Of a stretch of 64,000 nt of DNA, positions 34,101 through 58,021 are shown piece by piece. The stretch lies in IMG/VR virus record IMGVR_UViG_3300024297_000001; one strand, 5' to 3'. Origin of the DNA: a virus. Lineage: Duplodnaviria > Caudoviricetes. Position numbers and translations under genes: made by a program. The notes under the pieces are model-generated. The model searched no databases. It saw nothing but the letters and a program-made list of their open reading frames with translations, and was not told the DNA's origin. Within the stretch, counting starts at the first letter, position 1. Every line of letters starts with the position of its first letter.

Positions 34101-37100
34101 TAAATATAGCAATCAATATGTAAATCAAGGTACAGTATTCATTTACGAAAGCATTAACGGCACATTCGAAATGGTACAACACCTAACTGGACCTAAAGGA
34201 ATTGCAAATGAGAAGTTTGGTACTGTTGTTAAGTACGGAACTGATAGACTTGCAGTACATTCAGCAGGTGGTGACCTTACAAGTATTACAGAATTTGATG
34301 GAGGCATAACAGCATTTGATAATGGAACTACATTATTCAATACATCATTAATTGATACTGGTGAAGTTTTTGTTTACGAACTGTTAGGTAACAGATATGT
34401 GTATGCAGACAAGTTAGAATTTGCAGATAGCAAAGCATTATACTTTGGTAAGACAATGTTTATTAATGGTAACCACATTTATGTTGGTATACCTTCTTAC
34501 AAGAGAGATGATAACAACAGTAGAGGAACTTTATTAGATTATAGATCAACTCCTAATACTAAATTATGGGAAAAAATTAGATCTGCAAGACCATTAGTTG
34601 ACCTAAGTAGATTCAAAGGTATTAGTTTATACAATAAAAATACAAATCAAGTTACAGAATATATTGACTACATTGATCCTGCACAAGGAAAAATTGCAGG
34701 AACGGCTGAAACTGAACTATCATTCAAAACAACTTATGATCCGTGTACATATAATATAGCAACTGATACAACAGTTGTAAAAGATGAAACAATGTTTAAC
34801 ACAACTGACAATGTTGGTAAGTTATGGTGGGATATTGACGCTGTAAGATTTTTAAATCCATACAGCAATACAGGAAACATCTTTACTACAAGTAACACAA
34901 TGAACGAAGTGTTCCCAGGAACAGAAGTTGAAGTTTATGAATGGGTTGAAAGCACATTACTTCCAAGTGAGTGGGACGAAGAAGCAGATACAGAAACTGC
35001 TTTGGCACAAGGTATTAGTGGTAAATCTAAATACGGTGACAATGCATACAGTACAAGACGTGTATATGATGAAGAAGCACAGAAGTTTACAACTTTCTAC
35101 TACTACTGGGTAAGAAATAAGAAAACTACTCCAGATGCACCAGGCAGAACTTTAAGTGCCGCAGACGTACAAGAATTAATTAGAGATCCATCAGGTGCAG
35201 GACTAAAATTTGCAACTATGCTTGATAAGAATGAGTGGACTTTACATAACTTACAAAGTTCTATCACAGGAGATGATACAGTTCTTAAGTTTGCGTATTG
35301 GAATATTAATGAAACTGATAAAAATGTACATAATCAATACAAAATTATTACAGACGGGTTAGCAACAAGTCTTCCTAAAACAGATTTAGAATTAAAATGG
35401 TTTGACAGTTTAATTGGCTTTGATAACCAAGGTAGACCTGTTCCAGATAGACAATTAACTGAAAGAGATAGGTATGGTATTTTAAATGATCCAAGACAAT
35501 CTATCTTTGTAAACAGAATTGAAGCATTAAAACAACTTGTTGAAAGAACAAACAGTGTTCTTAAGGAAAATATCTTAATTGATGACTTTGATCTAAGTGA
35601 TTTCCAAAGCAATGATGCTATTCCAACTTTAGCATCAAGAAGATTTGACACAGAGATTGATAGTGATAGCGAATTAAGTTTTGTACCAGTAGGTAGATTA
35701 AAACAAGCAACTATTAATTTAACTATTCAAGACGGTAAAATCCTAAGAGCAGATGTTATTGAACAGGGTTACGGTTATAAAACAGTACCAACAACACAAA
35801 TCACAACAAACACAGGTGAAGGTGCTGTTATTGAACTTACAATGAACAATGTAGGACAGATACAAACAGCAACAGTTGTTAAGAGTGGTAGTAACTATGC
35901 ACAAACAGATACAATCAGAGTTAGACCGTTTACAGTTCTTACAACAATAGATGCAAGTTACGCCAACAAGTGGTCATTATACGAATATGTAGGTGGCGAA
36001 CAAACTTGGAATAGAATTAAGAGTCAAAGATATGACGTAAAACCTTATTGGTCATATGTTGATTGGTATGCAACAGGTTACAATGAACTAACAAAAGCAG
36101 ACTTTGTAATTAATGAAACGTATGAGTTAGAATCATTAGAGGATTCATTCAACAGTATTGTTAAAATTAACAATGTAGGATCAGGCGGTTGGTTATTATT
36201 ACAAAAAATTGACGATCAAGCAGATGTAGACTATACAATAAATTACAGAACTATTGGTAGACAAAATGCAACAATACAATTATCAAAATCATTGTATGAT
36301 TACAGTGAAGACTTAATTGGTTATGACTCATATGGTTATGATGACAGTGCATTTGATATACAACCAATTGATGAAATGCGTATTATCTTAACAGCATTAA
36401 GAGATAAAATATTTGTTGACGAACTTGCTATTGAATATAACAAATTATTCTTTGCACAAATGCGTTATATTTTATCAGAACAAAAATTTGTAGACTGGAT
36501 GTTTAAAACTTCATTCATCAAAGCAAAACATAATCTTGGTAAACTAAGAAAAGACATTACATTTAATAATGACTTCTTAGAAAGTTATGAGGAGTATGTA
36601 AAAGAAGTCAAACCATACAAATCTAAAATTAGAGAATACCTAAGTACATACGAAGGTGATGAGAAATCAGAAAACATGGTTACTGACTTTGACTTACCAC
36701 CATTCTACAGCGACACAGCAGGAAGAATTGTACCACAAACAGTTAGAGTTGTTAATGATGAAATAGTAACATCATCTAACATTACAAGTTATCCAAGCAA
36801 ACATTGGGTAGACAATGCAAGTTTCCAAATTAAACAGGTTGATGTTTTTGATGCAGGTAGTGGTTATGAAAATGCACCAGGAGTAGAATTTGTAGGCGGT
36901 GGCGGAACAGGAGCCAAGGCAACAGCGTATGTTGGCGGTGGAAAAATTACAGAGATTAAAATAGACAATCCAGGAACAGGTTATGTGTCTGCACCAACAG
37001 TAGTGCTTAACGGCGCAGTAGCAGATGGCGGCAAGACTGGTAGAGCAAGTGCAATCATAGGTAATACAAATTTAAGAACTACACACATGAATGTTAAGTT

Positions 37101-39972
37101 TGATAGAGTAACGGGAACGTTCTTTATTACAACACTTGCTGAAACAGAAACGTTTGTAGGTACAGGCGGCAAATATAACTTTAAGTTAAAATGGCCAATG
37201 GATATTAAGAGCGACCAAGTAACAATTACAGTTGCTGGATCAGAAGTATTACAAAGCGGATACACAGTTTCAAACATTGACGACAGTGTAGGTAGAACAC
37301 ATGGACGTAAAATAGGACAAGTTACATTTACAAATCCTCCTGCAAATAACAGTGCAATATCAGTTTCGTATAGAAAAGATATTTCAATGTTAACTGCACA
37401 GGATAGAATTAACTTATTCTACAATCCAACTACAGGAATGTTAGCAAATGACCTTGGACAATTATTAGACGGTATTGACTACGGTGGAGTTCAAGTTAAG
37501 AGTTTTGACTTTGGCGGTGGTTCAGGTTGGAGTGCAGAAGGTTGGTTTACAGGTGCATATGATTCATATGATAATACATACGAAGATGAAGTAATACGTT
37601 TAGACGGAAGTACAATTAGTGTAACACTTTCTAAGCCATTAGAAAATGGTGTTGAATATAATGTTTACTTGAATGGCACAAGAATTGATGATCCAAACTT
37701 CCCAGGTAGTCCAACTAATCCAAATGCAAGATGTACTACACTTACTGGTGACGGTACAACAACAACTATATTCCTTGATAATGATGGATTAGATATTAAT
37801 GGTGCTAATAGTCCAAGCAATGGCGATGTCTTAATATTTAGAAAAAATACAAGTGACGGTTCTTTTGTTCCTGATCCAAGAGCATATGACACATTAGTTA
37901 CAGGCGGCGACTTGGCATACTCAAGTGCAACAGGTATTAATCCAGAAGATATTAATATTGACGGTGACGGATTTGTAACACAATTAACAAGTAAAGGTCC
38001 GGAAGAACAAGTTCCAGGACAGGTACTTGATACTCTTGATATGAAAATTTATGATAGAGTAGGAAGTGGTGCAAGTATTATAGAAAGCACATCATACATT
38101 GGTGATGGTGGAAAAACAGTATTCAAGTACAACGGTCAACCGCAAAGCAAAGATGCATTAATTGTTAAGATTAATAATATCATTCAATTACAATCTGCAT
38201 ACACAGTTGATTACAAAAACAAAACTATTACAATGACTGCACCGGCATTGAACGCAAGAGTAAACATTATTACAATGAGTGGTAACGGTGATAAGATTCT
38301 TGACTTAGATACATTTACAGGTGACGGATCAACAATACAGTTTGTTACAAATGTTGACTGGAGAGAAGACATTAATAGTATTGTAACTGTTAACGGAGAG
38401 AAACCTTCTTACGTATTAGAAACTACAGACAGTTCATACGATACTGCCAACAAAGCAGTAATTACATTTGGTGCGGCACCGGCGGCTGGGGCAGTAATTA
38501 ACTTCGGAATATATGCAAGTGAGGCTCAAACATTTAGTGAAATTAAAACAGACAACTTGGTTGCAGATGGAAGTAGTGCATCATACGAATTAAGTGTAAC
38601 ACCATTCAGTAGTTTACCTGCAAGTCATAATATAATTGTTAGGGTTGGTGACAACATTCTAAACGCAGGTTACAATGAATCATTTATAATTGACAATAGA
38701 GTAGAATATCAATTACGTAACTGGCAACAACCAGGAGGTACATTAGGTGCTGATGATATTATTGTATTACTAAATGGTAATCAATTAACATATACTTCGG
38801 ACTTTATTTTCCGTCCAGCAAACTCAAGTATTGAAATATTTGAGAACGTTGCAATCCCAGGTGCTAAACTTGATATATTTGTAACAACAGATGGTGAATA
38901 TACTGTTAGCGGTAACGTTATAACATTAGATACTGTTCCAGCAATAGATACTAAGATTAAAGTTACACACTTTAGTAAACATGACGTACAACAGATTGAT
39001 CGTAAGAACTTTGATATTGTTACAAGAACTACTATTGACTTTGAAAGTGCGGCAGACATTGAGTACAATCACTTACTTGCAGGATTAATTAGACTTGAAA
39101 GACAAACAGTTGATGCTGAATATGTATGGATTGTTGTAAACGGCAAGTTACAAACACCAAGTGTTGATTACAAAGTTACAGATGATCAGTTATTTGTAAG
39201 AATGGCTAACCCATTAAATGCAAATGATGTTGTTGAGATTATACAGTTTGCTGAAACAGGACCAACAGTTAGCAAGTTTGGTTGGAGAGTATTCAAAGAT
39301 ATGCTCAATAGAACAGTATATAAACGTCTTGGAGATAACAATAAATATAGACTAATACAAGATCTTAAGCCGTTTGATAAAGAAATTAAAGTAGATAACC
39401 CAGATAGTATGTTTATTCCAGATAAAACTACCAATACTCCAGGTGTTATTTTCCTTAATGGTGAACGTATTGAGTATATGGTTAAGGACGGAAACAGTTT
39501 AACACAGTTACGTAGAGGTACTTTTGGTACTGGTGTTAAAGATTTACACGAAACAGGTGCTGAGATCTTCGATCAAGGCTTCCAACAAACTGTTCCATAC
39601 CAGGATCAGACACTGGTAAACACATATATTGGTGATGGAAGTACAACAGATTACTTGTTAGATTGGACACCAAACAAGGGTGTTGATGAGTTTGAAGTAT
39701 TTGCAGGCGGAAAACGTCTGAGAAAACGTAGTATTGCTATGTTTGACCCAACAGTTGGTCAAGATAGTCCAGAAGGTGATATTACAGCACAAGCAGAATT
39801 TAGTGTTTCTGGTAACACATTAACATTAAATACAGCACCAGCGGACGGTGTTAGGGTAACAGTAATCAGAAAAGTTGGAAAAACTTGGAATGATAAAGGA
39901 AAAACATTAGGAAAGACAAAAAATGCAATAGCACAGTTCTTAAGAGCTGAAGAGGTTGACTTACCTAAATAA
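25120..39972 (+). CDS. Giant 4,950-aa baseplate/tail structural protein (gp7-position, multidomain adhesin-like)
   Basis: Uninterrupted 14.85-kb ORF coupled to the gp6 stop; N-terminal LPKYFRT..NKKFL..TLDQL; contains FG-x-S...G(A/I)P propeller-like repeats, W-x5-Y-x4-V-x-Y motifs and GDG-x-T-x-x-F repeats. Confidence 0.75.
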   Translation: MAYDNDQNDLPIGPGEDENRTSLSHLPKYFRTPANKKFLTSTLDQLTNPGEVEKLNSYYGRRDAKALTADDNYVADVTKQREDYQVEPAVVLKDDADNVDFYKDYNDYINQLRAFGNKTPDHSKINAQEYYAWQPHIDWDKFVNFREYYWLPAGPQVLPIFGQNKEIVSTFKVSLEENDDNVAYKFTPTGLTQNPTLKLYKGQTYIFEIDTPGHPIAFATNRAFTPGQAIITETVEGVLASGKFEAELYDTDGYDTGDYIVEPVEGGITGFKDGDNISTIYTDGVESATVYVEKGTLKFTVPLDAPDTLFYISQNDVNTSGLVTLYNILENTEIDVEKEILQKVTYTTRTDTDLSNGMLVEFLGDVTPAKYSEGYWYVEGVGESIQLINKSDLEITGAYSSNIFVPFDTENFDKLPFGQALNYPKEQDYITINRASIDGNQWSRHNRWFHKDTIERTALANGTEVEIDQLQRASRPIIEFNPGLRLYNFGSEKKANVDLIDDFTIDVFSTIEGSTGYNVDGVELTEGLRVLFTADPDIRVNGRIYKVKFITHNGVRQVALQEETDTEPLTDQTVLVTGGTVNSGKIYWYNGSKWIKAQDKTKANQKPKFNLYDITDVGFDTYTSNTFTGTDLFSYKQGTGANDTVLGFPLSYRNIENSGDIVFNFDLLTDSFNYQLNQTDYTVKTDSSTLRKYTGLNTYTNVSGWEKVDTDSKQKVIRQYIVSGQKNDFAVDVYDRSGDLNQLDVKVFVNNTRQTAWTLNRINGIAYVRFTTDLKNDDILILHCTSEADKNANGKYEFPINLQNNPLNENIADFTYGEVTDHVQSIISNATGFTGSFPGPSNLRNLGGLAKLGTKFVQHSGAIPLASYHITNKEYNIVKALRFARKEYAKFKRAVVDIADNLGVDGTAPFLADKVIEKWQSEKSKQTAFYWTDMIGSGANNKREFTVTDVGNKFYSLTTPFSLSTISANAVYVYHNGIQLLHGQDYTFTSEGFVQIANDYVLAVDDTVTIYEYESTDASYIPPTPTKLGLYPLHKPIKFTDNTYQEPRVLIKGHDGSVVKAYNDYRDDIILEIEKRIYNNVKVSYDSTIFDIDAFLGHPSRDTGFTREDSENVTITDFVEWLSIAGDPDYTDISFYDRADPFTWNYSKLADPDGLPLPGFWRGIYNRYLGTDTPHTTPWKVLGYIDQPTWWETVYGPAPYTAENLILWGDLEKGLVREPNKPIRYKTNYKRKDLTKYIPVNTQGNLISPYDSGYAQGLIVPETDNSFVFGDESPVETAWRRSSEWPFALLLAYLIHQPAKVMGVGFDRARIIRNPAGGIVYSENNKRLEPKNIVFPNTVEDTTRITTAGLVNYIFNYINADVTKLNKAYSESVKGLEVQLGFKVGGFTTKDKFRLLLDSRTPNNKGNVFIPDENYKIFLNTSSPIDTVSYSGVIVEKRPAGFVVKGYDKSKPYFDYFQHIERAADPVVNVGGVSENFLEWTPGERYVEGQIIRTGTSFYRVKTTGIFATITDDNFIKLAELPIEGGREGILRREFESTTSKLNYGTMLRTTQEVIDFLLGYEQYLIKQGFDFSAFNRELETIENWELSAREFLFWTTQNWSEGALLTLSPSAINLNFRREYAVVDNIFDNFYDYTLLKADGQKLKEEFTNTLRSSQNSFGLQLKNTADGIYFLKLPLVQKEHVCLLDNKTVFNDTIYNPAPGYRQARIKILGYRTTDWNGGLHIPGFTYDGVTVKDWQENKDYDIADVVQYKTFYYSAKYKIQGSTNFFEDDWYKLPAKPKSELVPNLDYKANQFADFYDLDTDNFDSEQQRMAQHLTGYQKRKYIENIINDDVSQYKFYQGYIQDKGTTNSLKKLFDALSNTENSSLEFFEEWAFKVGQYGANGGFEEIEYKLDEGKFRLSPQPFQLVQNIDPLATDLVYRYVPSDAYSKPADYNHAPFPTKYIPEDESYIKTAGYVAEADIDFKVTNYDDILALDPNTIDVGKYIWVAKKSQTWDVLRQTETPFKVSAIVNSDSSGMIEITTGKAPAFVKDDIISILGTGDTDRFYKVQRTSLNTIYATTSGEQKDLPEISAFITQLISVRVDDLNGVNTKITRDNVSNNERVWVDHDENNRWAVVENRNKYDLKQQTFSNSIEGILGTDTNNFGTSISANATNSIIPVGVPGETENGRVDIYFRASENLKAVQSQILDMPDGYMSSGENSFGQSTNISTDGKWLIVGIPYASNVKSFYKGDFNSASTYTQEDIVKYTNQYWKAKTTVEPQDPDLEYQTFDSHVQALVSTRENNAYSNLQFILRGNFSFPEELTDHVLIRAPKTQYSGTEVGDKLQLLWNDINTRYPSGIAPFNNDPLMTKAYFDGEHAIVQKIDDILLIDNTKAIPSVGETISSATAVAEVTYVHTTGDNRSLIYVKDANGLFETTGTLFVGDIEIGVFERAVQQDENYLGGWWQIAGPNASFTSTVTIETKPYLVIQDIIKTGVSRSIKYYENALRIQDNLTDQNPTITSYIETLSFLGDSGNVLSDKWVFRAPATLTSNLVVGNTFNFYFSEYATADNLIQDPGVISPELTHDYLNRTEHTINDIWNGWIEVNLTAFDDRGSPTPSDPDYNPNYGQPFIPVVGDTVQDNDTLATAEVAGVEKLFNTLRLWVKNVNGTWKFGSQNSDISSLSINGGSQGAGVVRLVGTINTRHLESDTAGPIIVVDRGTNLTVGSTRTLQGFEYWIYDSVEQSGIARDANPPSNTNNDWQRVYNITANNAGVASAFTRQGAYAIFERNTSNFYNLHNIYIMPDAQSSRHLGAKVEMVTHNDGTYTAYLLSKGNGTFNQPGRINVIKYDRINGWILGQDVDYKGDFSETVTYRQGEYVKYLGLIYQAQTNIIASAWNESNWTVVTEGLDLNGYLPNDTGFIIGDDSAIQNNNLYEFGTEYGISSDGEVLATIVKYGDAIDSSINTPKLAIYRKVLGHFLFSQVIDAYAADIGFGSSVTVSNDGRFVAVGAPKYSNQYVNQGTVFIYESINGTFEMVQHLTGPKGIANEKFGTVVKYGTDRLAVHSAGGDLTSITEFDGGITAFDNGTTLFNTSLIDTGEVFVYELLGNRYVYADKLEFADSKALYFGKTMFINGNHIYVGIPSYKRDDNNSRGTLLDYRSTPNTKLWEKIRSARPLVDLSRFKGISLYNKNTNQVTEYIDYIDPAQGKIAGTAETELSFKTTYDPCTYNIATDTTVVKDETMFNTTDNVGKLWWDIDAVRFLNPYSNTGNIFTTSNTMNEVFPGTEVEVYEWVESTLLPSEWDEEADTETALAQGISGKSKYGDNAYSTRRVYDEEAQKFTTFYYYWVRNKKTTPDAPGRTLSAADVQELIRDPSGAGLKFATMLDKNEWTLHNLQSSITGDDTVLKFAYWNINETDKNVHNQYKIITDGLATSLPKTDLELKWFDSLIGFDNQGRPVPDRQLTERDRYGILNDPRQSIFVNRIEALKQLVERTNSVLKENILIDDFDLSDFQSNDAIPTLASRRFDTEIDSDSELSFVPVGRLKQATINLTIQDGKILRADVIEQGYGYKTVPTTQITTNTGEGAVIELTMNNVGQIQTATVVKSGSNYAQTDTIRVRPFTVLTTIDASYANKWSLYEYVGGEQTWNRIKSQRYDVKPYWSYVDWYATGYNELTKADFVINETYELESLEDSFNSIVKINNVGSGGWLLLQKIDDQADVDYTINYRTIGRQNATIQLSKSLYDYSEDLIGYDSYGYDDSAFDIQPIDEMRIILTALRDKIFVDELAIEYNKLFFAQMRYILSEQKFVDWMFKTSFIKAKHNLGKLRKDITFNNDFLESYEEYVKEVKPYKSKIREYLSTYEGDEKSENMVTDFDLPPFYSDTAGRIVPQTVRVVNDEIVTSSNITSYPSKHWVDNASFQIKQVDVFDAGSGYENAPGVEFVGGGGTGAKATAYVGGGKITEIKIDNPGTGYVSAPTVVLNGAVADGGKTGRASAIIGNTNLRTTHMNVKFDRVTGTFFITTLAETETFVGTGGKYNFKLKWPMDIKSDQVTITVAGSEVLQSGYTVSNIDDSVGRTHGRKIGQVTFTNPPANNSAISVSYRKDISMLTAQDRINLFYNPTTGMLANDLGQLLDGIDYGGVQVKSFDFGGGSGWSAEGWFTGAYDSYDNTYEDEVIRLDGSTISVTLSKPLENGVEYNVYLNGTRIDDPNFPGSPTNPNARCTTLTGDGTTTTIFLDNDGLDINGANSPSNGDVLIFRKNTSDGSFVPDPRAYDTLVTGGDLAYSSATGINPEDINIDGDGFVTQLTSKGPEEQVPGQVLDTLDMKIYDRVGSGASIIESTSYIGDGGKTVFKYNGQPQSKDALIVKINNIIQLQSAYTVDYKNKTITMTAPALNARVNIITMSGNGDKILDLDTFTGDGSTIQFVTNVDWREDINSIVTVNGEKPSYVLETTDSSYDTANKAVITFGAAPAAGAVINFGIYASEAQTFSEIKTDNLVADGSSASYELSVTPFSSLPASHNIIVRVGDNILNAGYNESFIIDNRVEYQLRNWQQPGGTLGADDIIVLLNGNQLTYTSDFIFRPANSSIEIFENVAIPGAKLDIFVTTDGEYTVSGNVITLDTVPAIDTKIKVTHFSKHDVQQIDRKNFDIVTRTTIDFESAADIEYNHLLAGLIRLERQTVDAEYVWIVVNGKLQTPSVDYKVTDDQLFVRMANPLNANDVVEIIQFAETGPTVSKFGWRVFKDMLNRTVYKRLGDNNKYRLIQDLKPFDKEIKVDNPDSMFIPDKTTNTPGVIFLNGERIEYMVKDGNSLTQLRRGTFGTGVKDLHETGAEIFDQGFQQTVPYQDQTLVNTYIGDGSTTDYLLDWTPNKGVDEFEVFAGGKRLRKRSIAMFDPTVGQDSPEGDITAQAEFSVSGNTLTLNTAPADGVRVTVIRKVGKTWNDKGKTLGKTKNAIAQFLRAEEVDLPK

Positions 39973-49202: not shown

Positions 49203-49743
49203 AGTACAAACATATATAGAGTTTGATCCTAAGACAGGAAACATTCAAACTATTACCTCCTATCCTCAGAACCAACACATAGAAGTTAATCCTGATGATG
49301 TAAAAGGATTATTAGATGGCTCAGAAAACTTCTTACACTACAAAGTACAGTTCAACCCAACTTCAACCATGTATGAACTTGTCAATGTGTATGATGAAGA
49401 ACGTTTCGAATACAATGTACACAACAGCATATACAAAGTACCTACAGATATTGAAGCAGACATTAATATTATAAAAAATTACAAAACAAAAACATGGCAA
49501 CTACAGTTTGGCAAACTATTTTCCAAAACATTAGAAAAGAATAGTGTAACATTACAAACTGTTAAAAATTTTAGCGTAGTTGCTAAGAACGATCCTTATA
49601 AACTACATAGAACATTACGATTTAATTTAGCAGATACAAATTTAGACTTGCAATTTGATCAAGATGATGCTATAATAACACAATACGACTTATATACTAA
49701 CAAGTTGTTCAACAGTTACAGCACAGGAGTCATTAATGATTAA
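49180..49743 (+). CDS. Hypothetical protein (187 aa)
   Basis: Clean overlapping ORF within the operon. Confidence 0.55.
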   Translation: MTDMHKDEVQTYIEFDPKTGNIQTITSYPQNQHIEVNPDDVKGLLDGSENFLHYKVQFNPTSTMYELVNVYDEERFEYNVHNSIYKVPTDIEADINIIKNYKTKTWQLQFGKLFSKTLEKNSVTLQTVKNFSVVAKNDPYKLHRTLRFNLADTNLDLQFDQDDAIITQYDLYTNKLFNSYSTGVIND

Positions 49744-50623
49744 GATTGCAGAACAAGATATTATTTTTTTAAGTTACGATGAGCCTAATGCTGAAGAAAA
49801 CTGGGCAGACTTAAAAAGAAAAGTGCCGTGGGCAAAACGTGTACATGGTGTAGAAGGTAGTGATGCCGCACACAAGGCATGTGCAGACTTATCAGAAACT
49901 AAACACTTCGTTACAGTTGACGGAGACACTATTGTTGATCCTAAATTTATAGAAGTAGTATTAGACTTAGACAAGTTAGGTGTAGATGACGACTATCAGT
50001 TTAGTTGGTGTGGTAAGATTGACGTCAACGGACTAATGTATGGTAACGGTAGTTTAAAAATGTGGACTAAAGAGTTTGTTAAGAATATGAAAACTCATGA
50101 AAACACAGATGGTTCTGATGATACACAAATAGAATTCTGTTACTTTGACAACTATTATCAACTCAACGAAAATTATAGTAAAAGTATTATTACTGCTACT
50201 CCACACCAAGCATGGCGAGCAGGATTTAGAGAAGGTGTTAAGATGTCATTGGATAGAGGAACACCTATTAATGACTTGAAAGAGTTATGGTGGCAGAATT
50301 ATCATAGATTGTTAGTCTGGATGATGGTAGGTGCAGATGTTGAAAACGGTTTATATAGTATTCTTGGTGCAAGACAAGGTTGTTATAAAACAATGTGTAC
50401 CGAATGGGATCATACGCAAACAAGAGATTTTTTATACTTAAATAAACTGTGGGAAGAAAGCGATTTTCACAGTGGTAATGTTGTGGATCGTATTACAGAT
50501 ATAGGAACTTTAATTAGAAATGAATTAGATGTTCCTCTTGCAGTACATCCATATGATAATGAACAAAGTGAATTTTTTAAAACTGTTTACAAAAATAGTG
50601 ATAGGGTGATTAGACGAAAATGA
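49736..50623 (+). CDS. Glycosyltransferase-like (GT-A/GT2-like)
   Basis: DIIFLSYDEPNAEENW...AAHKACA...FVTVDGD (DxD); AWRAGFREGVKM. Confidence 0.55.
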   Translation: MIKIAEQDIIFLSYDEPNAEENWADLKRKVPWAKRVHGVEGSDAAHKACADLSETKHFVTVDGDTIVDPKFIEVVLDLDKLGVDDDYQFSWCGKIDVNGLMYGNGSLKMWTKEFVKNMKTHENTDGSDDTQIEFCYFDNYYQLNENYSKSIITATPHQAWRAGFREGVKMSLDRGTPINDLKELWWQNYHRLLVWMMVGADVENGLYSILGARQGCYKTMCTEWDHTQTRDFLYLNKLWEESDFHSGNVVDRITDIGTLIRNELDVPLAVHPYDNEQSEFFKTVYKNSDRVIRRK

Positions 50624-50865
50624 AAATTAGGTACTATCGAAATATCAAGGGGTGGCGTTGGTTAGGATTTTTTCTTGCCATGGCATCTGCTTATATTTTA
50701 AGTAGTGGTAATCCTGACTACCAAGTTATGGGTTGGAGTGTTGCATGTTTTAGTTGTGGCATTTGGATTTACATGGGTTGGAAAGACGGAGATACACCAC
50801 GTGCATTGATGGAACTGTTTTATTTGGTACTTGCTATACGTGGAATTATTAACTGGATTCAATGA
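50620..50865 (+). CDS. Small 3-TM membrane protein
   Basis: 81 aa with three hydrophobic helices (WLGFFLAMASAYIL; VMGWSVACFSCGIWIY; LMELFYLVLAIRGII). Confidence 0.6.
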   Translation: MKIRYYRNIKGWRWLGFFLAMASAYILSSGNPDYQVMGWSVACFSCGIWIYMGWKDGDTPRALMELFYLVLAIRGIINWIQ

Positions 50866-52229
50866 GCGAAGTAGAAAGAATAAAGCAGATAATGCCAGAG
50901 GTCGACAAGATCTCTCCTACCTTCTGCTTGGCTAAATGGCACCACGTAACAATATATTTGCAAACAGGCGAAACACACAGTTGTTATCACCCAGCACCAC
51001 ATAAGATTCCACTTGAAGGATTAATTGACAATCCAAGTCAACTACACAATACACCGCAAAAGAAACAAGAACGTAAACAAATGCTTGAAGGCGAAAAGCC
51101 AAGCGGTTGTCAATACTGTTGGAATATTGAATGTATGGGTAAAGACTATATTAGTGATAGGCATATTAAAACAGCAAGTATATACACACCTAAACGTATT
51201 GAAGAAATAAAAAGTAATCCATGGGATTATAATATTAATCCAGAATACATTGAAATAAATTTTAGTAATGAATGTAATTTTAAATGCGGTTACTGCCATC
51301 CTAAGTTTAGCAGTAGATACTATAACGAAATTAAAAAAGAAGGTCCATATACAGATGTATCTGCACACCGTAATGACATTGATTGGTTTGAATTATATGA
51401 AGAAGAAACTAATCCTTATGTAGAAGCATGGTGGAAGTGGTGGCCAGAAGTTAGTAAGACACTAAACATCTTACGTGTTACAGGCGGCGAACCTTTAATG
51501 CACAAAAGTACTTGGCGTTTGTTTGACGAACTTGAAGCAAATCCTAAACCACATATTCAAATTGAAGTAAACAGTAACATGGGTGTTAAGGAATCTCTTG
51601 TACACAAACTTGTAGAACGTGTAAAAGAACTTAAAGCAAAGAACTGTATAAGAAGTTTCAAATTATACACAAGCATAGATACTTGGGGACCTAAAGCAGA
51701 ATACACAAGACGTGGATTAGATATTGAACTATGGGAAAAGAATTTAGATTACTATCTAACAGAACTTGGTTATCCTGTAACGTTTATGATTACATTTAAC
51801 TTGTTTGCTGTAACGAGTTTTGATTTATTGCTTAATAAAATACTTGAATGGCGTAAGAAGTACACAAGATCTAATGCAGGTGTACAATGGCAAAACATTA
51901 GATTTGATACTCCTTATCTAAAAGAGCCAATACAGTTTGACATGAACATATTACCTAAGGATCAGTTTGTTCCGTACATGACAAGGCACCTACAGTTCAT
52001 CGGAGACAACGTTGATGACAATGACCGCCATAAGTTTAGTTTGTTGGAGTATGAGCGTTTTAGACGTGTTGTAGACTATATGCGTACAACTACTTACGAT
52101 GATAAGAAGTTAGCAATAGGACACAAAACTTTTTATAATTGGTTTACGCAATATGATAAACGTAGTGGTAGTAGTATTGTTAAAACGTTTCCGGAACTTA
52201 AAGAATTTTATGATTCTTGTAGATCTTAG
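50862..52229 (+). CDS. Radical SAM protein with N-terminal twitch/SPASM-like Cys cluster
   Basis: CNFKCGYC; GGEPLM; N-terminal FCLAKW...SCYH...GCQYCW. Confidence 0.9.
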   Translation: MSEVERIKQIMPEVDKISPTFCLAKWHHVTIYLQTGETHSCYHPAPHKIPLEGLIDNPSQLHNTPQKKQERKQMLEGEKPSGCQYCWNIECMGKDYISDRHIKTASIYTPKRIEEIKSNPWDYNINPEYIEINFSNECNFKCGYCHPKFSSRYYNEIKKEGPYTDVSAHRNDIDWFELYEEETNPYVEAWWKWWPEVSKTLNILRVTGGEPLMHKSTWRLFDELEANPKPHIQIEVNSNMGVKESLVHKLVERVKELKAKNCIRSFKLYTSIDTWGPKAEYTRRGLDIELWEKNLDYYLTELGYPVTFMITFNLFAVTSFDLLLNKILEWRKKYTRSNAGVQWQNIRFDTPYLKEPIQFDMNILPKDQFVPYMTRHLQFIGDNVDDNDRHKFSLLEYERFRRVVDYMRTTTYDDKKLAIGHKTFYNWFTQYDKRSGSSIVKTFPELKEFYDSCRS

Positions 52230-53217
52230 AAGCAAGAATTTGATTGTGTGTTAACACAGCATTCATTTCATTTAACATTTCTTTACAGTCATCAATACTT
52301 AATAACTTAATGCTATCTAACAAGTAACGTATTTTGTTCATACGTTTTGTATGATCTTCTTCAGTATCGTAACTTTCGTCCCAAGTAAATGTTTTAAATC
52401 CTAACTCACGAATGTATTCTAATGTATAAGGTGGTGCAACGCAAACAAAAGGACGTTTATGTATCATTGCGTTAACAGTTTTCTCACTAAAGTTTCCTGT
52501 AGGCTGATAGAAACGTGTTTCGTTTGCTACAACGCAAAAACTTTTTTCATAGTAAGCAGATAAACTTGCTGGACCGTTTAGTTGTCCTATAGGCCATTTT
52601 TTATGTGCAGGGTCTATACTTTGTAATTCTGTATCAATGCTTAATGCTGGATCACTAAATGCCCAACTATAGTAACCTGGTGTATCTTGTAAGTGTTCTA
52701 TTATTAAACGTCTGTGTAAACTATAACGCCAATTAGGACAAATAAAGTGTTTATCAATATTGTTGTTAACATTAACAATACCGCCGTTGAATTGATTGCG
52801 TAAAAATATATCAAAGCATTTAAGTTCAAACGGATAGTAGTCTATATGTTTGTTTACATTGTAATCACAAGTGTATACAGTAATTTCTGCATTTAATTTT
52901 TTACTAAATTCTAAAATACTATCTAATTCATCAGCACGTAATTTTTCTCCGCCTTGAAATTCGCTAAAGAAATCTCTGTTATGCTTTTTACCATCTTCGT
53001 ATAATGTTAATGGTTCGTACAAATATATGTTAAGTTTTTTAAGTTTCTTTAACATTTTAGGAGTAAGAGGAAACTTATCAAAGTCTATATTATTTGTACC
53101 TGTGTATATAATAAAAGGATCTTTAGGAAACCAATGTTCAAATAGTTCAGTAAACATTGAACCTAACTTTGTAGATTTTACAGGAAGGTTACCCCAGAAT
53201 ATATCTTGTTTGAACAT
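52198..53217 (-). CDS. Glycosyltransferase-like (GT-B; GT10/exostosin-like C-terminal motif)
   Basis: FCVVANET...FSEKTVNAMIHKRPFV...LEYIRELGFKTF..DESYD; convergent 32-bp overlap with the radical SAM gene. Confidence 0.45.
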   Translation of the reverse strand: MFKQDIFWGNLPVKSTKLGSMFTELFEHWFPKDPFIIYTGTNNIDFDKFPLTPKMLKKLKKLNIYLYEPLTLYEDGKKHNRDFFSEFQGGEKLRADELDSILEFSKKLNAEITVYTCDYNVNKHIDYYPFELKCFDIFLRNQFNGGIVNVNNNIDKHFICPNWRYSLHRRLIIEHLQDTPGYYSWAFSDPALSIDTELQSIDPAHKKWPIGQLNGPASLSAYYEKSFCVVANETRFYQPTGNFSEKTVNAMIHKRPFVCVAPPYTLEYIRELGFKTFTWDESYDTEEDHTKRMNKIRYLLDSIKLLSIDDCKEMLNEMNAVLTHNQILASKIYKNHKIL

Positions 53218-53711
53218 TACCAGTAAGTGCCGGTGATTTGTAAAGTGTATCTTGGATCAACTCCAATGTTGCTGGCCGCATGTGGAGTATCAGGTTGCCA
53301 TAAAACATATTCACCTGCTTTCCAATTTACAAATGCTTTGCTATCTACTTCAAAGTAGTGTCCTGGTTTCCAGTCTTCTAAGAAAACAATAGCACGTCTT
53401 ACTTCGTTACGTTCTTTGTTAAACACTTTACAATATGTATTATAATGATCAACGTGTGTAGGCATGATATCTAACGTATCCATTTTGTAAAATACAAAAC
53501 CAGGATTATGTAAATTAAGTAATTGTGCTACTTGAATTGCATAGTCAGGCATTGTATTACGACTGTCATACATTTTGCCTGTTGTATTTTCATGCGTATA
53601 GCCTTGCTTACGCCAAGCGTCAGACTCAGCACCTGTAATAGGTTGTCTAACGTAATTGAAGTATTTGTATCCTTCGTCCCATAATACAGGACATTTACCT
53701 TTAGTCCACAT
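53217..53711 (-). CDS. 2OG-Fe(II) oxygenase-like (cupin)
   Basis: MPTHVD (HxD), WKAGE..LW....PHAASN.G..PRYTLQITG. Confidence 0.75.
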   Translation of the reverse strand: MWTKGKCPVLWDEGYKYFNYVRQPITGAESDAWRKQGYTHENTTGKMYDSRNTMPDYAIQVAQLLNLHNPGFVFYKMDTLDIMPTHVDHYNTYCKVFNKERNEVRRAIVFLEDWKPGHYFEVDSKAFVNWKAGEYVLWQPDTPHAASNIGVDPRYTLQITGTYW

Positions 53712-54669
53712 CTCTTTTTGTATCCAATGTTACGCAGTGAAATCCACCGCCAAGTGTACGTTGATGTCGCATTGGTAACATAGCACACTCTATTCCTTGG
53801 TGCTCAAGAAGGTGTCTTAGATCCTCTTGGTGTTCTTCTAATGCAACTAACTTTGTATTTACACTAAACAAGTTCATGTTAATCCACGTACTTGCATTAC
53901 ACCATTTAGGATAGTGGCCAATGTCTACAGGTTCAGGACACCATATAATATCCCAATTTCTAAATGGCTCAGGTAAATCTTCTCTTACTTTTATTCTACT
54001 TGGATTAACAAGTAATAACCCTTCACGTAAAAATGCAACAGTACTGTCAATATGCATGTAACTATAAACATTTTGTAATAGGTTTACTTTAGCAGTAGCA
54101 CCTAAGGCACCTTGTAATAAATTTGCACCTAACTTGTTTGCACTATTACTAACCAAGTATAACAGTTGGTCGTTTGCACGAATTATATTCGCGGCATCAA
54201 AAGCAGGACTGTATTCATTAAGTGCTAAAATATCTTTATTGCCAATACATTCTTTATTGTATAATTGACTTTCGTTGAAGCAACGTATTTCTTTTGGGTT
54301 ATCTAAATGATCTTCAAATGCTCTCCACTCGCCTTTTCTTGCACGTATAGGCATTGGTGTAGCAAGTGTTAGGTTACCATGTATAAACACACTGTCTCGA
54401 GGACAGTAATTATAGTAATGACAATCTGTTTTCTCTGGACGTACAACTTCTACACTTTCTGCTTGTAAAAATTTTACAAATGTTTCTAAGTCTTCATTTG
54501 CTTCTTCAATAACTTTACTTGGGTAAGGACCTTTGATAATTTCTGTTTCGTCTTTTTTATCTGCAAAATTAACACAACGTAAACTAATATCTATATCATA
54601 AGGTATCTTGGCTTTGTCTGCAATGCCAACAATTACTTTTCTAAGTTGTCCCCATTCGTTTGTGTTCAT
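53701..54669 (-). CDS. Amidinotransferase (glycine/inosamine-phosphate amidinotransferase family)
   Basis: NEWGQLRKVIVG, CPRD, FDAAN, MHIDST (His/Asp), LGGGFHCVTLD (catalytic Cys). Confidence 0.9.
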   Translation of the reverse strand: MNTNEWGQLRKVIVGIADKAKIPYDIDISLRCVNFADKKDETEIIKGPYPSKVIEEANEDLETFVKFLQAESVEVVRPEKTDCHYYNYCPRDSVFIHGNLTLATPMPIRARKGEWRAFEDHLDNPKEIRCFNESQLYNKECIGNKDILALNEYSPAFDAANIIRANDQLLYLVSNSANKLGANLLQGALGATAKVNLLQNVYSYMHIDSTVAFLREGLLLVNPSRIKVREDLPEPFRNWDIIWCPEPVDIGHYPKWCNASTWINMNLFSVNTKLVALEEHQEDLRHLLEHQGIECAMLPMRHQRTLGGGFHCVTLDTKRDVD

Positions 54670-55250
54670 TTAAAAACCTTCATGTCTGGAAGATATGGAT
54701 AATCATTACTGCTCCATTCCTTTGTTGGTTCAGTAACGTTTTCTAATTTTTCAATACCAAGTTGTGCAGTTTCTGGAGTCATATAATAATGATATCCTAT
54801 GTATTGAATGTCTTGTTCGCCCCATGGCTTATCATCTGTTCTACCATCATGTGCCATTGCTTTTAATACTGCATAGTCTGTTTCATTAGGACATAATATT
54901 GCACCGCCTCTACCTAAACTTAACATTTTCTTATGTTGAAAACTCAAACACTTATAGGTGTTAGGCATGTAACTATTACGTTTGAAACTAACAGCACCGT
55001 CTATAATTCTTGTACCACCTAATACATATTCTTCATTCCAAGAAGCATCAACAAACTCCCAATCAATGTTTAACTTCATTAATGTAAATGGAATACTAAT
55101 ATACGTTCTTGTAGGTATCTTTACGTGGTTAGGCTTTAGATATCGTAAACAAAGTTCAATAGAATGGGTACAACTATCCGTTGCAACGGCAAATGGTGCA
55201 TTATAATACTCTGCAATGCGTTTTTCGAACTCTTTCACGGTTTCAAACAT
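54666..55250 (-). CDS. DegT/DnrJ/EryC1/StrS-family PLP aminotransferase (short)
   Basis: AVATDSCTHSIEL, IIDGAV, CLSFQHKKML.LGRGGAIL (PLP Lys), GYHYYM. Start placed at 55250 because the 55256 ATG lies inside the promoter box. Confidence 0.85.
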   Translation of the reverse strand: MFETVKEFEKRIAEYYNAPFAVATDSCTHSIELCLRYLKPNHVKIPTRTYISIPFTLMKLNIDWEFVDASWNEEYVLGGTRIIDGAVSFKRNSYMPNTYKCLSFQHKKMLSLGRGGAILCPNETDYAVLKAMAHDGRTDDKPWGEQDIQYIGYHYYMTPETAQLGIEKLENVTEPTKEWSSNDYPYLPDMKVFK

Positions 55251-55255
55251 ACACA

Positions 55256-55263
55256 TATTTATA
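55256..55263 (-). promoter_or_regulatory. Late promoter TATAAATA, 5 nt before ATG (55250)
   Basis: Minus strand reads TATAAATA-TGTGT-ATG; no SD. Confidence 0.7.
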
Positions 55264-55274
55264 TGCGTAGTTAA

Positions 55275-55280
55275 TAAGTA
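55275..55280 (+). promoter_or_regulatory. Late promoter variant TAAGTA for the rightward operon
   Basis: In the divergent gap, back to back with the minus-strand TATAAATA. Confidence 0.4.
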
Positions 55281-55347
55281 ATAGTGTGAGTGAAATTATT
55301 AAATTATCCGTATGGTCTGAAAAATATCAAAATATTGGAGAGAACGC

Positions 55348-56532
55348 ATGAATATAGGATTTTTAGGAGTCGGTAAACTCGGTATACCATGTGCAGAAGA
55401 AATAGTCAAAAAAGGTCATACAGTTTTTGGTTATGATACTGCTAAAATTACCAGCGAATTAATTATACAAAAGCCTACAATCAAAGATGCAGTAACTGGT
55501 GCAGACATTGTGTTTGTTGCAGTACCAACACCGCATCACGAAGATTATGACGGTAAACGTCCTACAAGTCATTTACCACCAAAAGATTTTAATTACGATA
55601 TTGTAAATGATGTTCTTGAAGAAGCAGACATGCATATGACAAAGGATCAATTGCTTGTTCTTATCAGTACAGTATTACCAGGTACAACACGTAGAGAATT
55701 TGTACCACGTGTTACACATACACGTTTTGTATATAACCCATATCTAATTGCAATGGGTACTGTGGGTTGGGATATGATTAATCCTGAGATGGTAATGATA
55801 GGAACTGACGATGGTAGCGAAACAGGTGATGCAAAACAATTAAAAGAATTTTATCAAAGCATTATGGAAAATGACCCACGCTATGTTATAGGAACATATG
55901 ACGAGTGCGAATGTATCAAAGTGTTTTACAATACATTTATTTCTACTAAATTAAGTTTTGTTAACATGATTCAAGATGTTGCACAACGTCAAGGTAACAT
56001 TAATGTTGACGTAGTAACAAAAGCCTTAGCAGAAAGTACACAACGTATAATGAGTCCTGCATATATGACAGCAGGCATGGGTGATGGTGGTAGTTGTCAC
56101 CCAAGAGATAATATTGCTTTACGTTACATGGCAAAAGAATTAAATTTAGAATATGATATTTTTGATAACATTATGAAAGCAAGAGAAATACAAGCAAAAA
56201 ATCTTGCAAAGTTTGTTGTTGAAACAAAAAAGAAATATGGCGGAAGTATTTTCTTAAATGGTATATCATACAAACCAGGCGTACCTTACATTGACGGAAG
56301 TTATGCACTACTTGTTGATCACTATGTTAAGGAACTTGGACACAGTATGATTTACATTGATCCACTTGCAAGTGAAATGCCAAGTAGTCAAGTAAGCCTT
56401 GGAGGTATTATTTTACTTGCACACCCAACCCCGTACTTAGAATACTCAACAGACTCAGTGTTTATTGATCCGTGGAGAAAAATGAAACCTAATTCTAAGT
56501 ATCTTGTCATACAATACGGAAACACAAGATAA
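55348..56532 (+). CDS. UDP-glucose/GDP-mannose 6-dehydrogenase family
   Basis: GFLGVGKLG, VFVAVPTP, STVLPGTT, YNPYLI, KVFYNTF, GGSCHPRD, SYKPG. Confidence 0.9.
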   Translation: MNIGFLGVGKLGIPCAEEIVKKGHTVFGYDTAKITSELIIQKPTIKDAVTGADIVFVAVPTPHHEDYDGKRPTSHLPPKDFNYDIVNDVLEEADMHMTKDQLLVLISTVLPGTTRREFVPRVTHTRFVYNPYLIAMGTVGWDMINPEMVMIGTDDGSETGDAKQLKEFYQSIMENDPRYVIGTYDECECIKVFYNTFISTKLSFVNMIQDVAQRQGNINVDVVTKALAESTQRIMSPAYMTAGMGDGGSCHPRDNIALRYMAKELNLEYDIFDNIMKAREIQAKNLAKFVVETKKKYGGSIFLNGISYKPGVPYIDGSYALLVDHYVKELGHSMIYIDPLASEMPSSQVSLGGIILLAHPTPYLEYSTDSVFIDPWRKMKPNSKYLVIQYGNTR

Positions 56533-57344
56533 TGTTTTACACTAAGGATCATCCGTTATTATATTTTCCTGAAATAGCAGGTAAAAGTTTACAATGGTAT
56601 TGTGGTGACGATTTAGAAAACTACAATCAGTACAACAAAGAAGGTTGGGAGTATCATAATACTGCTGATAAGTTAGAATACAACTTTAACAGTCTTGGAT
56701 ATCGTACAAAAGAATTAACGGGTCTTAATAACGATTATATTTTAGTGTTCGGGTGCAGTTATACTGAAGGCGTAGGTTTATACGAAGAACAAATATGGTG
56801 TAATAAAATTAGCAAGATGTATGATATAGACGTAATAAACTTAGCCAAAGCAGGTACAGGACCTGATATTGTTGCGTTAAATACACAATTATTCATAAAG
56901 AACAAATTTGTACTTCCTAAATGCGTCTTAATTCAATGGCCACAATCGTCACGAAAAAGTTTTGCATACACTGAAAAGAAATTGTTTACTAATCAAATAA
57001 GATTAGAAGATAGGAATATTATGTTCCTTCCAGACGGAACTGAAGAAGAATACGAAATGATGGACTCAGTTTGGTACCACAAACGTTGGGTTCATGAACA
57101 AGGACAAATGAATTATGAGAATTTGTATCATCTAAATAGTGTAAACAATATATGGAACGCACTTGGTGTGCCTGTACATAATTGGACATTCCAAGCAGAC
57201 TTTAAAACAAAGTATGACAAAGATATGGTACAAACAGTAAAAACAAAGATGACTGGTCGTGCAAGAGATGAGGCCCATGACGGAGAAAGCATACACGACC
57301 AAGTTGTCGCACAAATAAAGGATAAAGTAAAATGTATGATATAG
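56532..57344 (+). CDS. SGNH/GDSL hydrolase-like (acyl-transfer/esterase) protein
   Basis: FNSLGYR...ILVFGCSYTEG (block I), INLAKAGTG (block II), C-terminal D..H.G..H. Confidence 0.55.
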   Translation: MFYTKDHPLLYFPEIAGKSLQWYCGDDLENYNQYNKEGWEYHNTADKLEYNFNSLGYRTKELTGLNNDYILVFGCSYTEGVGLYEEQIWCNKISKMYDIDVINLAKAGTGPDIVALNTQLFIKNKFVLPKCVLIQWPQSSRKSFAYTEKKLFTNQIRLEDRNIMFLPDGTEEEYEMMDSVWYHKRWVHEQGQMNYENLYHLNSVNNIWNALGVPVHNWTFQADFKTKYDKDMVQTVKTKMTGRARDEAHDGESIHDQVVAQIKDKVKCMI

Positions 57345-58021
57345 TCTTCATAAGTTACGGCGAACCAAACGCTGATGAAAACTGGAAACATATTAAGCAA
57401 ATGTTTCCTATGGCGAAACGTGTAAAAGATGTTAAAGGTTTACATCAAGCACACATTGCCGCGGCTAAAAAATGTTTTACAAAAATGTTCTGGGTTATTG
57501 ATGCTGATGCAGAGTTAATGCCAGACTTTGATTTTAATTTTGAGGTTTCCGAGTGGGATTTAGAAACAGTGCATGTATGGCGAAGTATAAATCCGATCAA
57601 CGACTTGGAATACGGGTATGGAGGTGTAAAGTTATTACCGCGATCACTCACACTGAACATGGACACTTCCATGCCCGACATGACTACAAGTATCAGTGAT
57701 AAGTTCAAAGCAATGCCAGAGATAAGTTGCGTAACAGGATTTAACACTGATCCTTTGAGTACTTGGCGTGGAGCATTTAGAGAATGTGCAAAATTAGCAA
57801 GTAAAACTATTCCAGGACAAGTAGATGAAGAAACAGAGAAGCGTTTGGAAACATGGCTTACTGTTGGTGCTGAAAGACAGTACGGAAAGATTGCAATGCA
57901 CGGAGCGGCATGTGGTAAGCAATTTGGAGAACACTATAGAGGCAATGTAGAAGCACTTGCAATGTTAAATGATTTTGATTATTTAGAAGAGGAGTTTAAT
58001 GAACACAAAGATTCCTTTTAA
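57332..58021 (+). CDS. Glycosyltransferase-like, paralog of 49736-50623
   Basis: DIVFISYGEPNADENW...QAHIAAA...FWVIDAD; YGYGGVKL; TWRGAFRECAKL. Confidence 0.55.
   Translation: MYDIVFISYGEPNADENWKHIKQMFPMAKRVKDVKGLHQAHIAAAKKCFTKMFWVIDADAELMPDFDFNFEVSEWDLETVHVWRSINPINDLEYGYGGVKLLPRSLTLNMDTSMPDMTTSISDKFKAMPEISCVTGFNTDPLSTWRGAFRECAKLASKTIPGQVDEETEKRLETWLTVGAERQYGKIAMHGAACGKQFGEHYRGNVEALAMLNDFDYLEEEFNEHKDSF

Follow-up and report, generated by a model that had tools for sequence, protein, structure and literature searches.

Can a phage build a sugar that bears a guanidino group and attach it to its own particle or to the surface of its host? This question is raised by four adjacent genes of an uncultured marine giant phage, found in a 64-kb window (the whole stretch of DNA analysed here, 64,000 nucleotides, IMG/VR record IMGVR_UViG_3300024297_000001). 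The genes, named A to D in the following, form a cassette of four minus-strand open reading frames (ORFs) at positions 52198–55256, inverted inside a long plus-strand island. The original prediction, made from the letters of this window, was that they encode an aminotransferase, an amidinotransferase, an oxygenase and a transferase, which together would make and transfer a guanidinylated sugar or cyclitol. In our opinion, there is about an even chance that these genes serve a larger phage glycan island as its module for the tailoring and transfer of a sugar, that they make a guanidino sugar and that they are expressed late.

Layout of the cassette

The four genes, with the proteins predicted for them, are the following:

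54666..55256, minus strand: gene A, ORF of 196 amino acids for a mini-DegT protein (alternative start at 55250)
53701..54669, minus strand: gene B, ORF of 322 amino acids for a StrB1-like amidinotransferase
53217..53711, minus strand: gene C, ORF of 164 amino acids for an HxD...H cupin related to PF05118
52198..53217, minus strand: gene D, ORF of 339 amino acids for a glycosyltransferase of GT-B fold, by predicted structure

Consecutive ORFs overlap by 4 nt (A/B), 11 nt (B/C) and 1 nt (C/D). All the other long ORFs between 15773 and 64000 lie on the plus strand, and within the window the reversal in sign of the GC and AT skews is confined to the 52–56 kb bins. On the minus strand, gene A is preceded by TATAAATA, then TGTGT and the ATG; an earlier in-frame ATG shares the final A of the TATAAATA box, so that gene A starts at either 55256 or 55250. 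The ORFs, the strand survey and the skew agree with the arrangement described originally, namely four overlapping minus-strand genes behind TATAAATA-N5-ATG, inverted in a plus-strand island. Compared with four relatives, the ratio of nonsynonymous to synonymous substitution rates (dN/dS) is 0.06–0.19 over all four genes (0.08–0.18 for gene A and 0.06–0.12 for gene B), which indicates purifying selection on each of them. A megablast search of the cassette against GenBank phages gave no match.

The four encoded proteins

A phmmer search of the PDB with gene B finds StrB1 (1bwd) with E 2e-57 over residues 4–319, followed by HsvA (3e-34), AGAT (1e-28) and SxtG (2e-25). When a profile of ten divergent viral homologues is used instead, StrB1 reaches 250.6 bits, AGAT and HsvA about 149 and SxtG 125, and the PDB matches of the profile are amidinotransferases only, with no other fold family among them. 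The residues D158 (in FDAAN), H206 (MHID) and C312 (GGGFHC) align with the catalytic motifs of StrB1 and AGAT, and none of them varies among 10 divergent viral homologues. Pfam and NCBIfam gave no match to gene B, a result that reflects the coverage of their models and is not evidence against membership. Judged from its sequence, gene B truly belongs to the amidinotransferases, its Asp/His/Cys triad is intact, and StrB1 is by far its closest solved relative; the arginine-type amidinotransferase that had been proposed holds as to family, by the full-length similarity and by the triad. The family is large, with 7870 proteins at E ≤ 1e-10, of which the top 120 are all 64–94% identical and about 320 amino acids long. 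Longer forms are actinobacterial only, being fused to aminoacyl-tRNA-synthetase-like, APH or TauD domains. Two leads from the literature were discarded: the amidinotransferase mentioned in deazaguanine papers is ArcS, unrelated to gene B, and the gene discussed in a paper on auxiliary metabolic genes of the ocean is GAMT, not gene B.

Gene A matches PF01041 with 60.1 bits (cut-off 19.8), but only profile positions 24–93 and about 187–260 are covered. The two-domain architecture of about 360–400 amino acids is not present, and at 196 amino acids the C-terminal small domain is absent. A full-library search returned 436 representatives of the family at E ≤ 1e-10, nearly all of about 200 amino acids; since the family as a whole has this length, gene A is not a broken gene. 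Seven residues (W73, D86, S105, F106, K110, G117 and G118) are invariant among 42 family members; K110 aligns with the lysine that binds pyridoxal 5'-phosphate (PLP) in sugar aminotransferases, and D86 corresponds to the aspartate that pairs with the ring nitrogen of PLP. The AlphaFold (AF2) model has a predicted local distance difference test (pLDDT) of 96.8, and all its Foldseek matches are of DegT type, with template modelling (TM) scores of about 0.7 on the query and about 0.38 on the target. The part of perosamine synthase, ArnB, WbpE, PglE, PseC, AHBA synthase and BtrR on which the model superimposes is their large PLP domain. On this model, gene A amounts to the PLP domain of a sugar-aminotransferase-type enzyme in minimal form, lacking the C-terminal domain, and its transaminase activity is putative. 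The DegT/StrS-type aminotransferase of the original prediction therefore holds as to family, by PF01041 and by the PLP lysine and aspartate, but not as to a full-size enzyme, the protein being half-size.

Unrelated phages also carry members of the mini-DegT family in plain glycan clusters. In the Flavobacterium phage immuto it lies between a mannosyltransferase gene and a gene for a 'pilin glycosylation protein', with a nucleoside-diphosphate-sugar epimerase and more glycosyltransferases alongside; in the huge phage LR756502 (642 kb) it is found among NAD synthase, a homologue of the dehydrogenase next to our cassette, a methyltransferase, an epimerase/acyltransferase and three GT11 genes. These contexts place gene A in nucleotide-sugar chemistry. 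With hundreds of 50%-identity clusters, nearly all of about 200 amino acids, the mini-DegT family is an unstudied minimal PLP enzyme.

On its own, gene C gives neither a Pfam match nor a meaningful PDB sequence match. The fusion protein P0193, one of a class of 540–590 amino acids, begins with a part to which the whole of gene C aligns at 43% identity, and this N-terminal part matches PF05118 (Asp_Arg_Hydrox) with 35.5 bits (cut-off 22.6). The pattern P-x-H-x-D ... H ... N ... RY.LQ is invariant in 16 homologues, fused forms included, and so is the metal-binding HxD...H triad (H86, D88 and H144). A conserved arginine, R154, ten residues past H144, may hint at 2-oxoglutarate binding. The nearest Atlas clusters score 0.98, PF05118 being assigned to about 20% of their members. 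Gene C is probably, from these motifs, an HxD...H cupin related to PF05118 and a candidate Fe(II)/2-oxoglutarate oxygenase. The earlier call of an oxygenase stands with respect to the family, although the assignment goes through a fused homologue rather than through a Pfam match of the gene itself. At one locus (L017:4437-5431), two tandem C-like cupin paralogues of 172 and 159 amino acids take the place of the single gene, followed by an ORF of 201 amino acids before D.

Gene D is visible as a transferase only through structure prediction, as it has no Pfam or PDB sequence match and tblastn against GenBank phages gave none either. Its AF2 model (pLDDT 87.8, predicted TM score 0.87) has 18 Foldseek matches at E ≤ 1e-3, and the top ones among those listed are all GT-B (the glycosyltransferase of phage HY126, T4 beta-glucosyltransferase (BGT), SdgB and GtfC), at low TM-scores of 0.3–0.45. 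With VIA-align, FUT11 (Z 11.2), Gtf3 (10.8), T4 BGT (10.5) and FUT9 (10.2) come out alike, with Z of 9–11 over residues about 5–338. The H. pylori FucT is also alike in fold by this aligner, and an Atlas lead for GT10 scores 0.80. E233, R235, S244, E245 and K246 are invariant in the family. Membership of GT10 by sequence was tried and rejected: PF00852 (GT10) was found in none of 35 family members, even at E ≤ 1, and hhalign against a GT10-annotated phage protein was not significant, aligning only NFSEK to YFTEK. The model thus files gene D by fold, without a family, as a GT-B glycosyltransferase with GT10-like features, and two independent aligners uphold in this form the transferase that had been predicted.

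Conservation and arrangement of the cassette in other viruses

The cassette recurs in 17 related viral contigs. When 20 window proteins were compared by tblastn with 19 viral loci, A-B-C-D was found in one order and inverted with respect to the same neighbours in every locus that is long enough. Both order and inverted orientation are conserved across L003–L020, with a dehydrogenase gene on one side and a twitch radical S-adenosylmethionine (SAM) gene on the other, while the identity of gene B in these loci of the window clade goes from 100% down to 66%. Failure of the four genes to co-occur would have refuted the original prediction on its own terms; they do occur together, in all relatives within the window clade that are long enough.

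Another scan, which started from a gene B homologue of 66% identity, gave 47 further viral loci. Gene C is present in 46 of the 47, gene A in 38 and gene D in 14; tandem GT25-like paralogues are found in 32, a small radical SAM gene in 13 and the dehydrogenase in six. Several arrangements occur: A-B-C-D; (GT25-like)n-A-C-B-GT25-like; (GT25-like)n-A-C-radical SAM-B, the type seen in phage S-SCSM2R; and B-C-D. The context of gene B is rich in glycan genes (tandem GT25-like genes, GT2 and a carbamoyltransferase), and related loci carry 4–6 tandem glycosyltransferases. B and C make up the constant core, which A joins in nearly every case and which invariably lies among glycosyltransferases. The carbamoyltransferase, a NodU/CmcH type O-carbamoyltransferase (PF16861 and PF02543), was found once, directly behind an A-C-B-GT25-like block (L031:8814-10394), where it adds to the cluster a second enzyme for nitrogen-rich tailoring of sugars.

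In a quick IQ-TREE tree of gene B (51 viral and two actinobacterial sequences, unrooted relative to characterised amidinotransferases), all 51 viral sequences stand apart from the two actinobacterial StrB1-like ones; each of the arrangements rich in glycosyltransferases makes up one clade, and A-B-C-D is spread over several deep lineages. The genome-contig scan for gene B yielded only two actinobacterial loci; since its search patterns were specific to the viral clade, this count does not speak for absence from cells.

Fused forms tell more about the relation between the genes. A is joined to C in P0249 and to the C-terminal half of D in P0243, P0255 and P0302; C is joined to D in P0193 and many others; and P0376 combines GT1, an FkbM methyltransferase and A. 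Such pairwise fusions of A, C and D suggest that the three act on one substrate or in one complex, and we think that they probably form a complex. Gene B is tied to A, C and D by constant adjacency only.

Probable promoter box and time of expression

Two features in front of gene A bear on when the cassette is expressed:

55256..55263, minus strand: TATAAATA box, probable late-type promoter element, directly before gene A
55257..55347: divergent intergenic region of 91 bp between gene A (minus strand) and the dehydrogenase gene (plus strand)

The number of TATAAATA copies in the window, three against 7.4 expected by chance, is not notable in itself. What matters is the placement, as all three TATAAATA copies, and eight of the ten copies of ATAAATA, are found at most 60 nt ahead (upstream) of a gene start on the same strand, a zone that comprises only ~2% of strand positions. 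Examples of ATAAATA sites are 5516, 15740, 21077, 21567, 39969 and 44762 on the plus strand and 10587 and 55263 on the minus strand. The genes marked in this way include 21090, directly after a baseplate-hub-like gene, and those at 5557, 15773, 21593, 39994 and 44793, which by their position we take for baseplate or fibre genes. The N5-ATG spacing of the cassette copy is found again at the copy at 21077; if transcription starts as in T4, this spacing would give a nearly leaderless mRNA.

Relatives L003–L018 have the box before gene A in the same position, in the form [C/T/A]ATAAATA, and a block of ~45 nt in the 91-bp intergenic region, the box included, is conserved in relatives though its flanks have diverged. 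A box that is shared with structural genes and conserved in position supports co-expression with them, and the cassette is thus probably expressed late.

Proposed pathway and alternative explanations

With the gene identities, catalytic residues, conservation, co-occurrence, fusions and motif placement described above, we infer a substrate, an order of steps, a product and a target for the cassette. The pathway would begin with the making of a keto nucleotide sugar; the adjacent nucleotide-sugar dehydrogenase, which probably feeds the pathway with its sugar substrate, may supply the compound from which this keto form arises. The mini-DegT protein A would aminate this keto sugar. Gene A is followed by an amidinotransferase, that is, by an enzyme able to modify the amine that A would make: B would use L-arginine as donor, bind its amidino group to the active-site cysteine and hand this group on to the amine, giving a guanidino sugar. 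C may then hydroxylate the sugar or the acceptor, and D would transfer the finished unit to the acceptor. Late expression with the structural genes makes a fibre or baseplate protein of the virion a plausible target, with a host envelope glycan as the alternative.

Several points weigh against this pathway. No enzyme for the keto intermediate was identified. In full-length enzymes of the DegT family the C-terminal domain helps to form the active site, so the activity of gene A may differ. The acceptor of StrB1 is a phosphorylated aminocyclitol, and to our knowledge no amidinotransferase acts on a nucleotide sugar; PF05118, in turn, is best known for the hydroxylation of proteins and lipid A. 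A search for longer forms of gene B never found it fused to A, C or D in the viral clade, and eight B-C-D loci have no A within 7 kb. As for expression, each of the four genes is represented at full identity among contigs from the RNA libraries of two marine studies, but these contigs give neither strand, ends nor timing, and carry-over of DNA is possible.

With StrB1 by far the closest solved relative of gene B, the module might rather make a streptidine-like guanidino-cyclitol. An inositol-type ring would be oxidised by a radical SAM enzyme or another dehydrogenase, aminated by A in the manner of StsC or BtrS, handed to a kinase, amidinated by B as StrB1 does, and glycosylated or attached by D. 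In both sequence and fold, gene A indeed also resembles BtrR/BtrS, an inosose aminotransferase; the cassette has radical SAM genes at its flanks, and in loci of the L021 and S-SCSM2R types such genes lie between A, C and B; and the amidinotransferase of Campylobacter phages is found among radical SAM genes, one of which is annotated 'BtrN protein'. For the kinase there is an actinobacterial APH-amidinotransferase fusion and, in relatives, a weak APH-like ORF about 12 kb off, but the latter match is under the family cut-off. Moreover, the cassette and the genes next to it include no inositol-phosphate synthase, no deoxy-inosose synthase and no clear kinase, the best PDB match of the small radical SAM protein is not BtrN, and the dehydrogenase and the many glycosyltransferases in the neighbourhood point to nucleotide-sugar chemistry. 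We regard the cyclitol as rather unlikely. We think it unlikely, too, that gene B is a stand-alone metabolic gene with unrelated neighbours, which would produce a small guanidino compound from arginine such as guanidinoacetate, homoarginine or an amidinated polyamine, in the way of AGAT or HsvA. The source databases do label the family 'glycine amidinotransferase', HsvA and AGAT are significant matches and B is never fused to the other three; StrB1, however, is ahead of AGAT and HsvA by about 100 bits, translation of B is coupled to that of A and C in the window, and the presence of C in 46 of the 47 further loci, always among glycosyltransferases, persists over wide divergence and several gene orders.

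The remaining alternatives concern the molecule that is modified. If proteins were the targets, C would hydroxylate residues of a phage structural protein in the manner of Asp/Asn beta-hydroxylases, D would O-glycosylate it and B would turn a lysine, or another amine of a protein or glycan, into a guanidino group. The relation of C to PF05118 is in line with this, as are the location of the cassette behind fibre and baseplate genes (among them an ORF of 4950 amino acids), the ATAAATA box that they have in common, and the many best fold matches of D that glycosylate proteins (SdgB, GtfA/B, Gtf3, GtfC and OGT). These fold matches are, on the other hand, tied across all GT-B families at Z 9–11, we know of no amidinotransferase that acts on proteins, and no role would be left for a protein resembling sugar aminotransferases that is fused to C or D in relatives; direct protein modification thus has, in our view, no better prospects than the stand-alone gene. 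Phage DNA is a still less likely target, to which D would move the modified sugar onto a modified base, as T4 beta-glucosyltransferase or the HY126 arabinosyltransferase do. The top Foldseek matches of D are precisely such DNA-modifying GT-B enzymes (for the HY126 context, see PMC13326640), but their TM-scores are low, and fucosyltransferases are equal or higher in VIA-align. Besides, the 4–6 tandem glycosyltransferases of related loci suggest an oligosaccharide, and the cassette shares its box with structural genes, whereas genes for DNA modification are usually early.

Among these readings, the guanidino sugar made by a late-expressed glycan module is the one that we prefer. A wider claim would be that many phages of marine and fresh waters decorate a glycan, of their own fibres or of the host surface, with a guanidino sugar by means of a dedicated set of a half-size PLP aminotransferase, a StrB1-like amidinotransferase acting on a sugar rather than on a cyclitol phosphate, and a small cupin oxygenase as its regular companion; this we consider possible, although somewhat doubtful. 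If it were true, it would be a positively charged type of sugar that has not been described in any glycoconjugate. A guanidino sugar would represent a new building block in glycobiology and a new substrate class for amidinotransferases, besides giving a first biochemical handle on the large, unexplained islands of glycosyltransferase and radical SAM genes that abundant phages of the ocean carry beside their tail-fibre genes. A glycan with a permanent positive charge, whether on the virion or on the infected cell, could alter adsorption, the exclusion of superinfecting phages or recognition by the defences of the host. Since a carrier, the Synechococcus phage S-SCSM2R, is in culture, the module can be tested.

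Neighbouring genes and the glycan island

The cassette is bordered by the following genes:

55348..56532, plus strand: nucleotide-sugar dehydrogenase of the UDP-glucose/GDP-mannose dehydrogenase family (PF00984, PF03721; TIGR03026 with 155.6 bits; PHROG 9148 with E 2e-91)
50862..52229, plus strand: N-terminal-twitch radical SAM protein, convergent with the cassette (NCBIfam NF033640 with 309.5 bits)

Both keep their place beside the cassette in relatives, and homologues of the dehydrogenase are also found near A or B in L029, L059 and L070–72. The 3' ends of gene D (minus strand) and of the twitch radical SAM gene (plus strand) overlap by 32 nt (52198–52229), in relatives likewise, which leaves no room for a terminator. 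A likeness to BtrN was rejected for both the small radical SAM protein of other loci and the twitch protein of the window, as a PDB sequence search revealed none. In L076 (G003:C1:61221-61421) and L077 (G002:C1:16896-17039), an ORF of ~156 amino acids among radical SAM genes weakly resembles the catalytic loop of APH-type kinases with 15.7–17 bits, below the cut-off.

Farther out, the cassette is flanked by two paralogues (49736–50623 and 57332–58021) that are ~32% identical to each other, carry a D-x-D-like motif each and are conserved in relatives. Upstream of the glycan island, a single ORF of 4950 amino acids (25120–39972) is a possible target of modification. The baseplate-hub/lysozyme-like protein at 19552–21081 has its best GenBank phage matches, at ~31% identity, in PA5oct-type Pseudomonas jumbo phages and other jumbo myoviruses. 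A T4-like cyanomyovirus identity of the phage was accordingly rejected, the hub pointing to distant kinship with PA5oct-type jumbo phages and not with cultured T4-like cyanophages.

Comparison with known systems

In chemistry the nearest system is the streptidine branch of streptomycin biosynthesis, with StsC followed by StrB1 (L-arginine:inosamine-phosphate amidinotransferase, PDB 1bwd), which likewise combines a PLP enzyme of the DegT/StrS family with an amidinotransferase, leading from keto to amino to guanidino. Gene B is, however, only about 30–40% identical to StrB1-like proteins, the aminotransferase of the cassette is half-size, and no cyclitol-forming enzyme or clear kinase accompanies it. 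The cassette adds instead a cupin oxygenase and a glycosyltransferase, and it lies in a phage glycan island.

The statement that no characterised phage example exists was right, yet the genes have been noticed in print (PMC12801897, PMC2853527). The published genes that come closest are those of Synechococcus phage S-SCSM2R, the only cultured phage found with the module, in which ORF305 (AHBA_syn-like), ORF306 (radical SAM), ORF308 (2-oxoglutarate-Fe oxygenase) and ORF309 (inosamine amidinotransferase) were listed in 2025 as 'antibiotic synthesis genes' (PMC12801897); the authors went no further than naming them and surmising that an antibiotic is produced, and reported no experiment on this. 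Within this cluster, among glycosyltransferases, A has a homologue of 53% identity, B one of 62% and C one of 38% over the C-terminal half. Its order is A, radical SAM, glycosyltransferase, C, B and GT2, co-directional with the neighbours and with no D. The same phage has a second amidinotransferase paralogue, ORF266 (L025:17354-18247), 25% identical to the C-terminal half of B and with a GGLHC motif, beside KdsA/KdsB and 2-oxoglutarate oxygenase genes; it was detected in the virion proteome (PMC12801897). In Campylobacter phages CP220 and CPt10, a module of radical SAM genes with a 'glycine amidinotransferase' was reported by Timms et al. (2010, PMC2853527). There the amidinotransferase stands among radical SAM genes with an aminotransferase nearby, and one neighbouring ORF is 24–26% identical to the small radical SAM protein beside B in the marine loci; the amidinotransferase itself is just 25% identical to B, and no homologue of the mini-DegT, C or D was found in that module. 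In these publications the genes are named only.

The surroundings of the cassette have a parallel in the host-recognition cluster of pelagimyophages and cyanomyophages, a variable island by the tail-fibre genes with glycosyltransferases, UDP-glucose dehydrogenase and radical SAM genes (Zaragoza-Solas et al. 2020, PMC7029224). The authors propose that a change of the host O-chain blocks co-infection, and do not mention an amidinotransferase. The layout of the window from 47 to 64 kb is the same, although its baseplate hub is nearest to PA5oct-type jumbo phages, so the lineage may differ.

The amino-sugar tailoring pairs PglE/PglD and WbpE/WbpD provide a further likeness, as in them a DegT-family aminotransferase is followed by an enzyme that modifies the new amine, like A by B. 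We know of no description of a guanidino group on a nucleotide sugar. In those pairs the second enzyme is an acetyltransferase and the outcome an acetamido group, whereas in the cassette it is an amidinotransferase, which would lead to a guanidino group.

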